In this document: positions 55,412 through 61,801 of the stretch, piece after piece
How positions within the stretch are numbered: position 1 is the stretch's first letter
Layout: the number at the start of each line of letters is the position of its first letter
Assembly (NCBI GenBank): GCA_018061825.1
Contig: JAGOTK010000002.1
Location: forward strand, 100 to 64,099
DNA: 64,000 bases
Direction: 5' to 3'
Source: Minisyncoccota bacterium
GTDB taxonomy: Bacteria > Patescibacteriota > Minisyncoccia > Phycocordibacterales > UBA5272
Program-made: the position numbers and the translations under genes
The notes under the pieces: model-generated
Database searches by the model: none
The model's input: only the letters and a program-made list of their open reading frames with translations
What the model was told of the DNA's origin: nothing

Positions 55412-55867
55412 CTATTTTATTTTTTTAATATCTTCATCTTCGTTCAATTCTTCAATATCTTCCTGTATTCCTTCTACGTCTTCACTTATTTCTTCAATAT
55501 TTTCTTGTATCCCTTCCATATCTTCACTGAGCTCTTCTATGTCTTCACTGATCTCTTCTATGTCTTCTTGTATATCGTCTACGTCTTCACTAATTTCTTC
55601 TATATCTTCTTGTATATCATCTACGTCTTCTGCGATTTCAGCAATATCTTCTGAATGTTTGTTTACGGTCATTTGTATAAAAAGTGAAAGATAAATAGCT
55701 TCAAGAGATACTATGGTAGTCAGTATTAGCATTACTTTATCTGCATTGTATCCTAATATTATCAATACTATAAAAAATAAAAATATTATAGTATGAATAA
55801 CTATAGACCATATAGATCCTATCCAATTTGTTATTTTCATTGCAAAATTTTCTAGATTATTTTTCAT
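55412..55867 (-). CDS. Membrane protein with C-terminal tandem acidic repeats (…EDVDDIQEDIEEIS… about 5 times)
   Basis: Two N-terminal TM helices; DNA-level ~42-nt tandem repeats across about 55425-55665. Confidence 0.5.
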   Translation of the reverse strand: MKNNLENFAMKITNWIGSIWSIVIHTIIFLFFIVLIILGYNADKVMLILTTIVSLEAIYLSLFIQMTVNKHSEDIAEIAEDVDDIQEDIEEISEDVDDIQEDIEEISEDIEELSEDMEGIQENIEEISEDVEGIQEDIEELNEDEDIKKIK

Positions 55868-56063: not shown

Positions 56064-58991
56064 ATGAGCAAATTAAATTACAGTGAAATAGAAAATAAAT
56101 GGCGTAAATATTGGTCAGATAATAAAGTAAACAAAACTTTAGATAATTTTGATAATGATAAAAAAAAGTTTTATATTTTAGACATGTTTCCTTATCCATC
56201 TGGAGAAGGATTACATGTGGGTCATCCAAAAGGATATATTGCTACAGATATATATTCTAGATTAAAAAAAATGCAAGGATATAATGTGCTTCACCCTATG
56301 GGTTGGGATGCTTTTGGATTACCTGCTGAACAATTTGCTATAAAAAATAAGATCAATCCAAATATCGGCACTGAAATAAATGTTAAGAGATATAAAGAAC
56401 AAATTGAAATACTTGGTCTTAATTATGATTGGGATAGAGAGATAAATACCACTGATCCAAAATATTATAAATGGACACAGTGGATGTTTAAACAAATGTA
56501 TAAGGATGGGTTGGCTTATGAATCTTTTGAGCCTATAAATTGGTGTCCAAGTTGTAAGACTGGTCTTTCAAATGAAGATCTTGATGGGAATGCTTGTGAG
56601 AGATGTTCTACAATAGTAGAAAAAAAGCCACTCAGGCAATGGGTTATAAAAATCACAGATTATGCTGACAGACTTTTAACTGATCTTGATAAACTTGACT
56701 GGGAGCCACACATAAAAGAGCTTCAAAGAAATTGGATTGGAAAAAGTGTCGGTAGTGAAATCGATTTTGAAATAAAAAACTTTCAAGAAAATAAATTAAA
56801 AATATTTACGACCAGAGCCGACACTCTTTTTGGTTGTACATTTATGTGTATTTCTTATACTCTTGCAAAAGAGTGGATTGGTAATGGTTGGAACGCAAGT
56901 GATGAAATAAAAAATTTTATTGAGAAACTCGAAAAAGAAGAAAAAGAAAGAACTATAGACTTTGATATGTCTAAACTTGAGAAAGAAGGAATTGATACAG
57001 ATATCAAAGCTATCAATCCTACAAATGATGAAGAAGTGACGATTTTTATTGCAAATTATATTTTGAGTGATTATGGCACTGGAGCAATCATGGCTGTCCC
57101 AGCACACGATGAAAGAGATTATGAATTTGCAAAGAAATATAATTTAGAGATCAGAGAAGTTATAGCTAAAAAAATAGGAAACTATAAAGAGGAAACAAGA
57201 AGAGTAGTTAGATCCGGTGTTGTCATAATTAAAGATGGAAAAGTTTTGTGTGAGAAATTAGGTCCGACTAGATTTAATGGAAAATATTTATTAGTCGGCG
57301 GATCCGTAAAAGAAGATGAGTCTGTAGAAGATGGATTGCTAAGGGAAATAAAAGAAGAGCTTGGTACAGAAGCTAAAAGTTTTTCTAAAATAGGAACTTA
57401 TGATGTTAGCTGGAACAATAATACTAATAATAATTCACAAAATACTTTACATAATATTTTTACTATAGATATAGATTTAGAAAAGATAAATGATTATAAT
57501 CATTTTGATAATGTTGAAATGGTTTGGGTACCAGTAGATGAATTTATTAAAGATTGTGAAGAAAATCAAAAACAAGATCAATCGGATGCTATTAGAAAAG
57601 TTTTAGAAAATAAATTTAGTCTTTTTGAAGACGAAGGTGTATTGATTAATTCACAAGATTTTTCTGGAATGAATAGTGAAGAAGCTCGCGAAAAGATCAC
57701 AGAAAAAGTTGGAGGAAAAATTGTAAGTAAATATAAGTTGAAAGATTGGGTATTTGCAAGACAAAGATATTGGGGAGAGCCTTTTCCAATTGTTTTTGAT
57801 GCTGATAATAATATAAAAGACAGAAAAAGCTATCTAGTAGCTGATAAAGAATTACCAGTGATTCTTCCAAATGTGGAAAATTACGAGCCAACAGATAATG
57901 GACAGTCACCACTCTCAAATATAAAAGATTGGGTGGAAGTATTTGGGTTTATAAATAATGAAGGGGAATTTGAAAGTGTAGAAAATCAAGATGTAAAAAT
58001 CGAAGGTAAAGAAATCAAAAAGTTTTTTAGAGAGACAAATACAATGCCACAATGGGCTGGAAGCTCTTGGTATTATCTCAGATATATTGATCCAAAAAAT
58101 GAGGATATATTTGTAGATAAAAATTTAGAAAAAAGTTGGAATCCTGTAGATTTTTATGTTGGAGGTGCAGAGCATGCGACAAGACATTTAATATATGCGA
58201 GATTTTGGCATAAGTTTTTGTTTGATAAAGGATTTGTATCTTTTGATGAGCCGTTCAATAAACTTCAGACTGTGGGGCTCATAATGGCTGAAGATGGAAA
58301 GAAAATGAGTAAGAGATACGGAAATGTTGTGAACCCTGATGGTGTAGTAAAAGAATTTGGAGCAGACGCAATGAGAACTTATGAAATGTTTATGGGTCCA
58401 TTTGAAAAAGCAATTTCTTGGAATACAAATAGTATGGCTGGAGTGTCTAGATTTCTTGAGAGAGTTTATAATCTGACAGAAAAAATAAATCTAAACAATG
58501 ACATAGATAGTAAAGAAATAGAAAGAACAATAAATGAAACTATTAAAAAAGTCGGTGAAGATATAGAAGCTTTTAAATTCAATACTGCTATATCTCAACT
58601 TATGATTTGTCTAAATACATTCGAAGAAGAAATTAAAAAAGAAAATAATATTTCTAAAAATACTTTTTCAAATTTCATTCAGATTCTTTCACCTTTTGCA
58701 GTACATATATCAGAAGAGATTTGGCAAAATATTTTAGGAAATAATTCTTCTATTCATTTATCTTCTTGGCCAAGCTTTGATGAGGCAAAAATTATTAAAG
58801 AAGAAATAGAAATGAGTTTACAAATTTCTGGAAAATTTAAAGGTTCATTTTTAGTTAAAAATAATCTTGAAGATGAAGAATTAAAAGAATTTATAAAGAA
58901 TTTAGATTTATACAAAAAACACATAAGTGAAGAAATTCAAATAAAAAAAATAATAGTCGTCAAAAATCGCTTGATAAATATAGTTATTTAA
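56064..58991 (+). CDS. leuS: Leucyl-tRNA synthetase with an inserted Nudix hydrolase domain
   Basis: HVGH, CP1 editing domain (TTRADTLFGCTF…GTGAIMAVPAHDERDYEFAKKY), KMSKRYGN; residues ~376-495 (nt 57189-57550) contain the Nudix box GSVKEDESVEDGLLREIKEELGT (Gx5Ex7REUxEExGU). Confidence 0.85.
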   Translation: MSKLNYSEIENKWRKYWSDNKVNKTLDNFDNDKKKFYILDMFPYPSGEGLHVGHPKGYIATDIYSRLKKMQGYNVLHPMGWDAFGLPAEQFAIKNKINPNIGTEINVKRYKEQIEILGLNYDWDREINTTDPKYYKWTQWMFKQMYKDGLAYESFEPINWCPSCKTGLSNEDLDGNACERCSTIVEKKPLRQWVIKITDYADRLLTDLDKLDWEPHIKELQRNWIGKSVGSEIDFEIKNFQENKLKIFTTRADTLFGCTFMCISYTLAKEWIGNGWNASDEIKNFIEKLEKEEKERTIDFDMSKLEKEGIDTDIKAINPTNDEEVTIFIANYILSDYGTGAIMAVPAHDERDYEFAKKYNLEIREVIAKKIGNYKEETRRVVRSGVVIIKDGKVLCEKLGPTRFNGKYLLVGGSVKEDESVEDGLLREIKEELGTEAKSFSKIGTYDVSWNNNTNNNSQNTLHNIFTIDIDLEKINDYNHFDNVEMVWVPVDEFIKDCEENQKQDQSDAIRKVLENKFSLFEDEGVLINSQDFSGMNSEEAREKITEKVGGKIVSKYKLKDWVFARQRYWGEPFPIVFDADNNIKDRKSYLVADKELPVILPNVENYEPTDNGQSPLSNIKDWVEVFGFINNEGEFESVENQDVKIEGKEIKKFFRETNTMPQWAGSSWYYLRYIDPKNEDIFVDKNLEKSWNPVDFYVGGAEHATRHLIYARFWHKFLFDKGFVSFDEPFNKLQTVGLIMAEDGKKMSKRYGNVVNPDGVVKEFGADAMRTYEMFMGPFEKAISWNTNSMAGVSRFLERVYNLTEKINLNNDIDSKEIERTINETIKKVGEDIEAFKFNTAISQLMICLNTFEEEIKKENNISKNTFSNFIQILSPFAVHISEEIWQNILGNNSSIHLSSWPSFDEAKIIKEEIEMSLQISGKFKGSFLVKNNLEDEELKEFIKNLDLYKKHISEEIQIKKIIVVKNRLINIVI

Positions 58992-59086
58992 TTGTGGATT
59001 ACTTATTTTGACTTTTTTGTCAAGTTGTAGTAGTATAGAATTAATAAACTAACAAGTTTAAAGTGGGATTTATTAGAAGGATAATT

Positions 59087-60145
59087 ATGAAAAATAAAAA
59101 TATGACAGAATCAACAATTTTATCTTTCAAACCAAAGCAAATCTCAAAAAAGTTTCTTTCATCTCTTAACCCAAGAATGAGAGACATTGTTTCAAATCGC
59201 TACGGTCTTGAAAATGAAAAGAGAATGACACTTGAAGCTATAGGGAAAAATTATGATATCACTCGTGAAAGAGTGAGACAAATTGAAAATTTTGCTTTAG
59301 CTACAATAAAAAAATCTACAGAATATAGAGAGAATATTTTTGTATTTGATGAGCTAAAAGAAATTGTAAAAAAATTAGGCTCTGTGACAAAAGAAGAAAC
59401 TTTGATGGACCATATATCAAAAGATAAAATAGTCCAAAACCACATAAACTTGTATTTAGTAATCGGAGGTCATTTTACAAAAGTAAAAGAATCTGACAAT
59501 CTTCATTCTCATTGGAGCGTAGATGATTTGCTTTCAGATCACATTAAAGACTCTATAAATAAACTTCACAATGAAGTAGAAGATACAGAATTATTAGGAG
59601 AAGAAGAAATTTTAGAAAAATTTGTATCAAATCTTGATCAGCTTGTAGATGAATATAAAAACAATAGAAATATTATTCATAAATATCTTTCTATTTCTAA
59701 GCTTATAGATAAAAATGATCTTGGTGAATGGGGAAGAGTTACCTCTCCTCATATTAGAGCTAGAGGAGTCAAAGATTACGCTTATCTTGTTGTAAGAAAA
59801 AATGGAAAGCCTATGCATTTTAGAGATGTGGCTGGAGAAATTACAAAAATATTTAAAAAGAAAACAAATGTCGCCACTTGTCATAATGAGCTTATAAAAG
59901 ATAAAAGATTTGTCCTTGTAGGAAGGGGAATGTATGGACTAAAAGAGTGGGGTCATGCAGCAGGAGTAGTCAAAGATGTAATAGTGGAAACTTTAAGAGA
60001 ATCTGGAAAACCTTTATCAAAAGCTGAGATAGTAGAAAAGGTACTTTTAAAAAGAATGGTAAAGACAAACACAGTTATTATCAATCTTCAAGATTCAAAA
60101 TTATTTAAGAAAGATAAAGATGGAAAATATAGTTTAGTAAAGTAG
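59087..60145 (+). CDS. Sigma-70 region-4 (HTH) domain protein with an uncharacterised ~270-aa C-terminal domain
   Basis: …RMRDIVSNRYGLENEKRMTLEAIGKNYDITRERVRQIENFALATIKK resembles RpoD region 4.2; AAGGA SD 8 nt upstream of the ATG at 59087. Confidence 0.45.
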   Translation: MKNKNMTESTILSFKPKQISKKFLSSLNPRMRDIVSNRYGLENEKRMTLEAIGKNYDITRERVRQIENFALATIKKSTEYRENIFVFDELKEIVKKLGSVTKEETLMDHISKDKIVQNHINLYLVIGGHFTKVKESDNLHSHWSVDDLLSDHIKDSINKLHNEVEDTELLGEEEILEKFVSNLDQLVDEYKNNRNIIHKYLSISKLIDKNDLGEWGRVTSPHIRARGVKDYAYLVVRKNGKPMHFRDVAGEITKIFKKKTNVATCHNELIKDKRFVLVGRGMYGLKEWGHAAGVVKDVIVETLRESGKPLSKAEIVEKVLLKRMVKTNTVIINLQDSKLFKKDKDGKYSLVK

Positions 60146-60211
60146 TACAAAATATTAAAACACTTCTCAATTTGAGAAGTGTTTTATGTTATAATTTTTA
60201 TATATAAATAT

Positions 60212-61801
60212 ATGCCTCTTCAACTTTTGATAGATATTGGATTATTTTTAATATATTGTGGAGTGTTTGTTTTACTTTTAGCTTGGACTTGGAAATTTTG
60301 GATGCTTTATGTAAATAATACTTGGGTGAAAAGTATTAAATGGACAACTATAGAAATAAAGCTACCAAGAGAGATAAATAAAAGCCCAGAAGCTGCAGAA
60401 ATCTTTTTAAGAAGCTTGATAGAAGGTGGGGGGTTAGGTAGTTGGTATAAGGAAAAATGGGAGGGTAGAATCCCAAATTATGCATCACTTGAGATTGCTT
60501 CACTCGAAGGAGTGATACATTTTTATATTCGTCTTGAAAGTAAATTTAGACCAAGAGTCGAGGCTGCAATTTACTCTCAATATCCAAATGTAGAAGTAAT
60601 AGAGCTCGCAGAAGATTATATGGAGAAAATTCCATACACTGTTAAACGAAATGAAAATACAGGAGTAGGATTTTGGGCTACAGAATGGGTACTTGCAAAA
60701 ACTCAAAAAATAGAAATTGGTAATAAAGATAAAAAAGGAAAAGTGGATGATACTTTAGATAAGTTGGAATATTCTGGAGATATGTATCCATTAAAAACTT
60801 ATAAAGATTGGGGGCTTGATAAAGATCCAAAAGAAATGTTTAAACATGACCCATTAACTTATGTACTTGAGCAAATGGGTAGTATTGGAAAAGGCGAATA
60901 TTTTGTATATCAAATTCTTTTAAGAGATGCTGGTAAATGGAATGAGATTTACAAAATCACTAAAAATGGAGACGATAAAAATCCTGAAAAAGGTAAAAAA
61001 TTATCGGATCTTGTAAAATTAGAATTGGATAATTATAAAATAAAATGGTCTTTAAAAAAGAAAGGGGATTTATTAGGATTTGATGAGTATGGAGATCCAA
61101 AGCAAAAAGAAATTTTAAAGACAATAGAAGAAAAAGATAAAGATGGAAAAATAATTAAAAAAGAAGTTAAAGAAAAAATTAACGCTGTATTTAATAGAGA
61201 CTTGGTAGAGTCAAAACCAATACCTTTAACTGAGAGAGAAGATGATTCTAAAAAGAATATTGAGCTTATACAAAGAAAAACTAGTAAGACACAAGTATTT
61301 TCTACTGTCCGTACAGTATATGTAGCAGAATCTGGAAAAGAGTTAGGAAGTAGAATACCAATGGTAATGGGTCTCATGAAGCCTTTTAATGAAGATGGTT
61401 TTAATACTTTTAGACCTGAAAATGTTACAGATCCATATGATTTTCCATGGCAAAATACAATGAAAAGATTGGTACCTTGGAGAAAAGAAAATATGTTTGG
61501 AGATTTACAAGGAAGAGATGGATTTTTTAGTTTTGTTTCTGGTATGGGAAAGAAAGGAAAGGAGGCAATGGATATTTTTTTCTTTAATCGTTCCAATATT
61601 AGTAAAAAACTTTTTTCTACATTTTATAATATTTTATTTTATCCTTTTAAACCGACAATTAATCTTTCAGGATTTACTTTAAATATAGAAGAGCTTGCTA
61701 CTTTATATCACTTTCCAGGAGAGGTCGCAGCCACTCCTTCAATACCTAGAATTGATTCTGTTAAAGGTTCTTCACCTTCAAATCTTCCAGTAGAAAGGTA
61801 A
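60212..61801 (+). CDS. Hypothetical large membrane-anchored protein (about 530 aa)
   Basis: N-terminal TM; no motifs; start taken as the internal ATG at 60212. Confidence 0.4.
   Translation: MPLQLLIDIGLFLIYCGVFVLLLAWTWKFWMLYVNNTWVKSIKWTTIEIKLPREINKSPEAAEIFLRSLIEGGGLGSWYKEKWEGRIPNYASLEIASLEGVIHFYIRLESKFRPRVEAAIYSQYPNVEVIELAEDYMEKIPYTVKRNENTGVGFWATEWVLAKTQKIEIGNKDKKGKVDDTLDKLEYSGDMYPLKTYKDWGLDKDPKEMFKHDPLTYVLEQMGSIGKGEYFVYQILLRDAGKWNEIYKITKNGDDKNPEKGKKLSDLVKLELDNYKIKWSLKKKGDLLGFDEYGDPKQKEILKTIEEKDKDGKIIKKEVKEKINAVFNRDLVESKPIPLTEREDDSKKNIELIQRKTSKTQVFSTVRTVYVAESGKELGSRIPMVMGLMKPFNEDGFNTFRPENVTDPYDFPWQNTMKRLVPWRKENMFGDLQGRDGFFSFVSGMGKKGKEAMDIFFFNRSNISKKLFSTFYNILFYPFKPTINLSGFTLNIEELATLYHFPGEVAATPSIPRIDSVKGSSPSNLPVER

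Follow-up and report, generated by a model that had tools for sequence, protein, structure and literature searches.

Why does a leucyl-tRNA synthetase carry a second, unrelated enzyme inside the domain with which it edits its products? This question is raised by the leuS gene at positions 56064 to 58991 (forward strand) of a 64-kb window on contig JAGOTK010000002.1, where the window means the whole stretch of DNA that was analysed. The source is an ultra-small bacterium of the Paceibacteria (Candidate Phyla Radiation (CPR)/Patescibacteria). The gene encodes a complete leucyl-tRNA synthetase (LeuRS) of 975 aa, and a complete single-domain Nudix hydrolase sits in a surface loop of its CP1 editing domain. 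An earlier note on this DNA had described a Nudix domain in frame within an otherwise intact LeuRS, and this description holds. As for the function of the domain, we lean, with limited confidence, towards an active and autonomous pyrophosphohydrolase that would be tethered to LeuRS and would have dinucleoside polyphosphates (ApnA) as its most plausible substrate.

A Nudix domain in a surface loop of CP1

The leuS gene is a single continuous open reading frame (ORF) from ATG to TAA, and all of its features given here are on the forward strand. The translated protein scores 914.4 bits against TIGR00396 (leuS_bact) and passes the curated equivalog cutoff of 548.4 bits. Pfam recognises in it a class-I catalytic domain, an editing domain (PF13603, 194 bits) that is matched in two stretches, an anticodon-binding domain (PF08264, 78.8 bits; aa 817-938, positions 58512-58877) and a NUDIX domain. 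The HIGH motif of the synthetic site is present as HVGH (aa 51-54, 56214-56225) and the KMSKS motif as KMSKR (aa 747-751, 58302-58316). In an alignment of 103 relatives, the HVGH columns are nearly invariant and residues K747, M748, S749, K750 and R751 are invariant. Ahead of the insert, the CP1 editing domain extends over aa 222-367 (56727-57164), with its T-rich motif, TTRADT, at aa 249-254 and its Asp motif, AHDERD, at aa 347-352. Both editing motifs are intact, and H348, D349, R351 and D352 are invariant in the same alignment. An AlphaFold model of the full-length protein, made with the 103-sequence alignment, has a predicted local distance difference test score (pLDDT) of 84.7 and a predicted template modelling score (pTM) of 0.80. 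The protein is a housekeeping bacterial-type LeuRS whose synthetic and editing sites are left intact by the insert.

The inserted module is 152 aa long (aa 368-519, 57165-57620), with bounds taken from two relatives in which the site is empty, L015 and P0004. In the empty-site relatives this position is occupied by a 10-aa loop, RDKEEKESKE, which is replaced by the module in the window. The interval proposed in the earlier note, 57189-57550 (aa 376-496), corresponds to the Nudix core and is shorter than the full module. PF00293 covers aa 385-498 (57216-57557); its gathering cutoff is 21.1 bits, and it scores 42.4 bits in the context of the whole protein and 46.9 bits on the excised insert. The Nudix box GSVKEDESVEDGLLREIKEELGT (aa 413-435, 57300-57368), the catalytic and metal-binding helix, is an exact GX5EX7REUXEEXGU, as had been reported. 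The X-loop aromatic is W450 (57411-57413), which lies 15 residues past the box and falls in the consensus Tyr column of the hidden Markov model (HMM) alignment.

The module had been placed after the end of CP1. Instead, it interrupts the PF13603 profile at about position 160 of 185. The first stretch of the profile match, aa 222-385, covers positions 1-160. The second is the C-terminal part of CP1, which runs from LFEDEGVLINSQDF... to YKLKDW (57621-57743) and aligns with Thermus thermophilus LeuRS from residue 376 on. By alignment, the insertion point is the loop between T. thermophilus residues 364 and 376, which we take to be inside CP1 (about residues 224-417). The insert begins 16 residues past the editing Asp motif.

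An AlphaFold2 model of aa 352-540 alone has a pLDDT of 90.8 and a pTM of 0.85. In this insert-only model, beta-strands at aa 367-371 and 525-527 flank a compact domain at its entry and exit. The helix of the Nudix box spans aa 421-433, and two additional C-terminal helices span aa 491-515. The domain has the alpha/beta/alpha sandwich fold of Nudix proteins. A profile search and a structure prediction had been suggested as checks on the domain, and both agree with its assignment.

An assembly chimera or a frameshift artefact, which the earlier note had allowed for, has a negligible probability. The reading frame is continuous, and the same insert is present with 82% amino-acid identity in an independent contig, L046 (ENA ERZ18668657), that is syntenic with the window. 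Upstream, both contigs have an ABC ATPase, an FeS-assembly protein, a thioredoxin/DsbA, a holin-like protein and a coiled-coil protein in common order. The architecture is present in NCBI, JGI, ENA and Logan data, and the module that spans both junctions is under purifying selection. Omega (Nei-Gojobori, NG86; window versus L046) is 0.09 for both the Nudix core and the LeuRS body and 0.14 (bootstrap 0.075-0.25) for the insert as a whole. The Nudix insert is thus selectively maintained. In L046 (3822-6762), the LeuRS is called as two ORFs of 285 and 706 aa, with ambiguous bases at the break (XXXX in the translation). This break is an assembly gap and not a truly split gene, because it coincides with the ambiguous bases.

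Distribution, history and genomic setting of the embedded domains

Relatives are the best 120 LeuRS matches in a collection of 5.8 billion proteins (NCBI, JGI, ENA and Logan assemblies). A survey of orthologues, also suggested in the earlier note, finds a precomputed PF00293 match in 61 of the 120. By a scan of genome collections, the closest relatives are metagenome-assembled genomes (MAGs) of Candidatus Paceibacterota, Paceibacteria, Parcubacteria, Nomurabacteria and Elulimicrobiales. The LeuRS-Nudix architecture is common in the Paceibacteria, where it belongs to a broader pattern of domain embedding. It is not the rare oddity that it had been taken for, and the Pfam match is already in public databases, where it stands without comment.

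Insertion sites were mapped by pairwise alignment of each relative to the insert-free LeuRS P0004 (829 aa), with inspection of the flanks and a Pfam scan. There are at least five sites in LeuRS (P0004 numbering), and a Nudix domain is verified by Pfam at all five. Site A (about 237-249) is at the start of CP1 and holds Nudix, ASCH (PF04266), alpha/beta-hydrolase or DUF559 endonuclease-like domains. Site B (about 371-387) is the site used in the window. It holds a Nudix domain in about 60 of the 120 relatives and an unrelated module in one (P0106). Site C (about 441-445), after RQRYWGEPFP, and site E (about 661-672), in the anticodon-binding domain, both hold Nudix domains. Site D (about 496-508), before RETNTMPQW, holds Nudix, ASCH or methyltransferase (Methyltransf_23) domains. 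Up to three guests are present in a single LeuRS: two Nudix domains and an ASCH domain in L011 (1212 aa), and a DUF559 domain and two Nudix domains in P0110. The DUF559 match at site A of P0110 has 110 bits, and the site-A insert of P0118 is homologous to it (50% identical; PF04480 precomputed). Guest domains other than Nudix are carried by P0006, P0011, P0014, P0016, P0021-24, P0035, P0041, P0047, P0110 and P0118 and by the loci L003 and L011.

The Nudix box is conserved at these sites. Five of its residues (G413, E428, E431, E432 and G434) do not vary across 55 site-B sequences, and E419 and R427 are conserved there in at least 90%. When 23 diverse inserts from the five sites are compared, none of these seven residues varies, while the mean column identity is 29%. 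The few inserts without the strict box still keep RE-x2-EE or KE-x2-EE. Invariance of the box residues in such divergent inserts is a signature of retained catalysis and, together with the purifying selection, suggests that the embedded Nudix domain is still catalytic.

An all-against-all comparison of excised inserts pairs modules from different sites as mutual closest relatives. The site-B Nudix domain of the window is 43-45% identical to the site-C Nudix domain of P0099 and 40% identical to that of P0002. Apart from its orthologue in P0028/L046, no other site-B insert is more than 35% identical to it. The site-B Nudix domain of P0003 and the site-E Nudix domain of P0110 are 63% identical. 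The site-B inserts can be sorted into types, and inserts of one type match or exceed their LeuRS bodies in conservation (for example, 94% versus 83%). Inserts of different types share 22-35% identity, even in hosts with more than 80% identity between their bodies. A neighbour-joining tree built from LeuRS bodies interleaves proteins with and without an insert. By direct alignment, L015, which is about 90% identical to the LeuRS of the window in the body (89% over residues 1-630), has the empty site REVI-RDKEEKESKE-LFEDEG. The insert types, the interleaving in the tree and the empty site of L015 are not congruent with one ancient fusion followed by drift. The LeuRS-associated Nudix group has seen repeated gains, losses and replacements, and it has repeatedly moved among permissive loops, at least five in all.

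Such a history raises the possibility of a selfish or neutral in-frame mobile module that has spread through tolerant loops without benefit to the host. Its patchy distribution on the body tree would fit this, as would the different insert types at one site among bodies that are more than 80% identical. Some inserts are also more alike than their hosts (insert and body identities are 83% and 61% for P0111 and P0090, and 76% and 64% for P0006 and P0118), and an endonuclease-like domain is present at site A in P0110, with a homologous insert in P0118. However, the insert and the synthetase are under equally strong purifying selection, the catalytic residues of the insert are invariant, and there are no near-identical copies in different backgrounds. 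The marks of a mobile element are missing as well. At the junctions, a search for target-site duplications and terminal inverted repeats gave only short AT-rich repeats, as by chance. Intein-like splicing termini were not found at the ends of the insert, which begins AKKIG and ends NKFS, followed by LFEDEG. The GC content of the insert shows no compositional anomaly (0.279 versus 0.300). A selfish or neutral module is therefore very unlikely.

The window's insert was searched exhaustively with HMMER against 1.84 billion representative proteins, with 348 matches at E <=1e-3. This search found no close free-standing parent, since the best match (P0122, 38% identity) is a piece of another LeuRS that has its own Nudix domain at site B and the next matches, tandem-Nudix proteins, are at E ~1e-11. 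The nearest free-standing relatives (P0123-P0126, P0129 and P0139) contain two or three tandem Nudix domains in 260-400 aa. These are of interest since several LeuRS proteins hold two embedded Nudix domains. When the insert alone was used in a word-index homology search, nothing but a 98-aa fragment was retrieved.

P0122 is encoded at L047:1-1527 (JGI 3300045384). Outside the window's own orthologue, its Nudix domain is the closest to that of the window, and it is at the same CP1 site. P0122/L047 was considered as a free-standing protein of CP1 and Nudix and was rejected: the ORF leaves the contig at the 5' end and derails at the 3' end, and the protein is a fragment. Its LeuRS core motif, RDWGISRQRYWGTPIP, resembles that of typical bacteria and not that of Paceibacteria, which hints that the insertion may also occur outside the Paceibacteria.

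Two further ideas, a phage origin and a role in defence, found no support. For a phage origin, the PHROGs family phrog_1198 (phage MutT/Nudix) matches the insert with 65 bits, but viral contigs gave only distant (27-34%) free-standing Nudix genes. For a role in defence, PADLOC gave only the generic Nudix match PDC-S07 (37.8 bits). Separately, P0261 (871 aa) is a phage portal protein (PF06381, 255 bits) with a C-terminal Nudix domain, and the PHROG portal family phrog_15528 weakly matches the insert. As read from these matches, the two imply that some Nudix domains may be packaged with virions.

A parallel is present in isoleucyl-tRNA synthetase (IleRS). Within its catalytic domain, the IleRS at L045:6001-9207 (+) (JAYFPW010000004.1, Candidatus Elulimicrobiales MAG CA_14) contains a His_Phos_1 domain (PF00300, 104 bits, aa 507-658). 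An embedded histidine phosphatase is present in all 120 of the closest IleRS relatives (P0271-P0390, 1127-1254 aa), which belong to the Parcubacteria, Nomurabacteria and 'Pacebacteria'. A Nudix domain is present in none of these 120. The LeuRS-Nudix combination is patchy and moves between sites, whereas the IleRS-histidine-phosphatase combination is fixed. From the guests of LeuRS and the histidine phosphatase of IleRS it follows that the lineage generally embeds small hydrolases in class-Ia synthetases. The Nudix domain goes specifically and repeatedly to LeuRS.

The surroundings of leuS are those of an ordinary chromosome, with UvrA, UvrB, PriA, SufS, MltG/YceG, a sigma-factor-like protein and one tRNA in the window. 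Upstream of leuS, Rfam finds no T-box or other leader RNA, and promoter-like matches are fewer than the shuffle expectation. The gene at 55412-55867 (-) encodes a predicted membrane-anchored protein of 151 aa with a highly acidic, repetitive coiled-coil tail and is syntenic in L046. The tail repeats E-D-V/I-D/E-D/E-I-Q-E-D-I-E-E-I/L-S/N-E-D, and the protein has weak DUF948 and SLATT_4-like matches. Directly downstream of leuS, the gene at 59063-60145 (+) encodes 360 aa with an unusual pairing of Sigma70 region 4 (aa 32-84) and HARE-HTH (aa 236-296). The 540-aa ORF that adjoins it downstream (60179-61801, +) has a hydrophobic N-terminus and no Pfam match at E <=1e-4.

Candidate substrates of the embedded Nudix domain

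Synthetases are the main cellular source of dinucleoside polyphosphates of the diadenosine tetraphosphate (Ap4A) type, whose roles as alarmones or RNA caps are still debated. In the tethered-hydrolase reading that we favour, the embedded Nudix domain would be a catalytically active, Mg2+-dependent pyrophosphohydrolase that works as an autonomous module. Its substrate class would be dinucleoside or nucleoside 5'-polyphosphates of the ApnA/ApnN type. These arise as side products of aminoacyl-tRNA synthetases when ATP or another nucleotide attacks the aminoacyl-adenylate, and the fused Nudix domain would destroy this alarmone-like by-product of LeuRS at its source. Selection would keep the tether, that is, co-localisation and 1:1 co-expression with LeuRS, with no fixed geometry to either active site. 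The tether and not the geometry would be the selected property, because related modules sit at five different loops.

The embedded domains as a group point to this substrate class. A Tyr is present at +15 to +19 past the box in 47 of 58 embedded Nudix domains. An X-loop Tyr about 16-18 residues past the Nudix box correlates with diadenosine-polyphosphate hydrolases (Dunn et al. 1999, as given in PMC5389931). For a profile of the 23 diverse embedded domains, the best characterised PDB matches are Ap4A hydrolases (1f3y, 50.3 bits; 3i7u, 45.6 bits), and NudI, MutT, RppH, Dcp2 and DIPP are at 33-41 bits. The Pro of ADP-ribose pyrophosphatases, about 15-16 residues past the box, is present in none of the 58 inserts, that of the window included. 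The NADH pyrophosphatase (NudC) motif SQPWPFPxS is likewise present in none of the 58. That aminoacyl-tRNA synthetases make Ap3-5N and related compounds is well established (PMC7705103).

Several observations weigh against this assignment. PMC7705103 does not single out LeuRS as an Ap4A producer. When the window's insert is searched alone, it is closest to MutT2, NudG, NudI, Nudt16 and BsRppH-type proteins, all below the family cutoffs (for example, 29.7 bits for the NudI model against a cutoff of 95). It has no canonical X-loop Tyr: Trp450 occupies the Tyr column and Tyr446 is at +11. In the family profile search, the Ap4A hydrolases lead the other classes by only about 5-10 bits, and the top match overall, 2azw, is without known function. 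Substrate prediction for Nudix proteins from sequence is notoriously unreliable. The insert is also dispensable or replaceable, because relatives with bodies about 90% identical do without it. Finally, the unrelated enzymes in the same loops and the histidine phosphatase of IleRS fit a general habit of fusion, free of any chemistry specific to LeuRS, equally well.

In a second explanation, a housekeeping Nudix hydrolase has hitch-hiked into leuS. It would be of the MutT/NudG/NudI or RppH type, either sanitising (deoxy)nucleoside triphosphates ((d)NTPs) or acting as an RNA 5'-end pyrophosphohydrolase, and would be fused for retention and co-expression only. An essential and constitutive gene of a streamlined genome would be its host, with no chemical link to leucylation. 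The best single-sequence matches agree with this explanation, and so do the Foldseek neighbours of the insert (MTH1, BdRppH and NudG). Within the window there is no further Nudix ORF besides the leuS insert. The insertion site is not fixed, unrelated enzymes are embedded in LeuRS too, and every IleRS relative has its histidine phosphatase. On the other hand, Nudix domains are present in five LeuRS loops and in 0 of the 120 IleRS relatives, and the insert is most closely related to Nudix domains embedded in other LeuRS proteins and not to free-standing genes. The X-loop Tyr and the profile ranking also favour ApnA over the MutT class. A hitch-hiking housekeeping enzyme is a serious alternative, though we consider it unlikely.

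The substrate could also be an RNA end. LeuRS would bring tRNA(Leu), and the Nudix domain, like the ASCH, methyltransferase and hydrolase guests, would process or repair the acceptor or 5' end. Examples would be removal of a 5'-triphosphate, a non-canonical cap or a toxin-added 3'-pyrophosphate. The host enzyme binds tRNA, and the CP1 domain of LeuRS receives the 3' CCA end of the tRNA. The Nudt16-like family PF22327 matches the window's insert at 23.0-26.6 bits, just below its gathering cutoff of 27, and the site-C module of P0099 at 29.2 bits. BdRppH and BsRppH are among the neighbours, and the same loops are occupied by ASCH domains, which have a PUA-like, RNA-associated fold. However, with a median net charge of -6 and an isoelectric point (pI) of 5.2, the embedded Nudix domains are acidic, which argues against direct RNA binding. 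One insertion site lies in the anticodon-binding domain, a long way from the acceptor end, and the toxin-repair idea is pure conjecture. We consider an RNA-end module decidedly unlikely.

The earlier note had proposed a proofreading module that acts in cis. In such a module, the Nudix domain would hydrolyse non-cognate aminoacyl-adenylates in pre-transfer editing, and its position inside the editing domain, so close to the catalytic Asp motif, would be suited to this. Nudix enzymes, however, cleave a pyrophosphate (P-O-P) linkage, and an aminoacyl-adenylate is a mixed acyl-phosphate anhydride without a P-O-P bond. Hydrolysis of leucyl-adenylate (Leu-AMP) is unlikely because it has no such bond and because full conservation of the canonical editing site does not depend on whether an insert is present. 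A role that depends on geometry is not congruent with related Nudix domains at five LeuRS loops, of which some are outside CP1 and one is in the anticodon-binding domain. Proofreading in cis is extremely improbable. Of the two substrates named at the outset, the aminoacyl-adenylate is thus given up, and ApnA keeps modest support from the X-loop Tyr and the Ap4A profile matches.

The tethered hydrolase may also be one case of a broader arrangement, which we hold to be unlikely. Class-Ia synthetases of the Paceibacteria would serve as docking platforms for exchangeable cassettes that act on synthetase products or tRNA ends. The cassettes would be the Nudix, ASCH, methyltransferase and alpha/beta-hydrolase domains in LeuRS and the histidine phosphatase in IleRS, swapped between loops and lineages. 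If true, docking platforms would be an unrecognised modular layer in minimal genomes, either in the control of aminoacylation-linked nucleotide signalling or in tRNA-end repair or antitoxin activity.

Relation to known synthetases and Nudix hydrolases

Synthetases with appended or inserted domains are already known, as are Nudix hydrolases, and the carriers of the fusion are labelled plain leucyl-tRNA synthetase in public records. The earlier note was not aware of a description of the fusion. In the literature searched, with most subscription journals outside its coverage, no description was found of a LeuRS-Nudix fusion, of its mobility among multiple sites or of an IleRS-histidine-phosphatase fusion. 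No synthetase is mentioned in a comprehensive review of the Nudix clan. The embedding of small hydrolases in tRNA synthetases is apparently an undescribed, lineage-wide habit.

The LeuRS-Nudix protein is widespread, selectively maintained and experimentally tractable. A synthetase-Nudix fusion that has been selected and re-invented at five positions offers a test system for the need to destroy by-products at source. In genome annotation, the activities of the guests are hidden under the label 'leucine--tRNA ligase'. This bears on the metabolic reconstruction of CPR bacteria, among the largest of uncultured bacterial lineages, which routinely embeds small hydrolases in essential translation enzymes. 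For protein engineering, the insertion sites are naturally validated permissive loops of LeuRS.

The full-length model has the same fold as the LeuRS of E. coli (4AQ7/5OMW) and T. thermophilus (1H3N/2BTE), with a template modelling (TM) score of about 0.84, normalised to the target. These proteins and the LeuRS of the window all have the HIGH and KMSKS motifs, the ZN1 cysteines, the T-rich and Asp motifs of CP1, and the anticodon-binding and C-terminal domains. The LeuRS of the window differs from that of T. thermophilus in two places. The 152-aa Nudix module stands in for a short loop (365-375), and the leucine-specific domain before KMSKS (T. thermophilus residues 581-637) is absent. A short AEDGKKMSKR link (window 58290-58320, aa 743-751) is all that is left of the leucine-specific domain. 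In this respect the protein recalls the Mycoplasma mobile LeuRS, as described in PMC3643597.

Among Nudix hydrolases, the Ap4A hydrolases (lupin 1F3Y/1JKN, Aquifex aeolicus 3I7U and the NUDT2 class) share with the insert a single-domain Nudix fold and a full box. They share with the embedded family an X-loop aromatic about 15-17 residues past the box. They are free-standing and have a Tyr at this position, whereas the insert is embedded, has a Trp, is of low identity to them and has a predicted activity. The Enterococcus faecalis MutT/Nudix protein 2AZW is a free-standing structural-genomics target whose substrate is not established, and it is 17-18% identical to the insert. MutT, NudG (Orf135), NudI and MutT2, and also RppH and Nudt16, have the minimal Nudix architecture of the insert but are free-standing. 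A parallel in kind is the NCBIfam family NF040702, 'isoleucine--tRNA ligase, N-acetyltransferase domain-containing', in which a class-Ia synthetase also hosts an unrelated enzyme, with a different guest and a different host.

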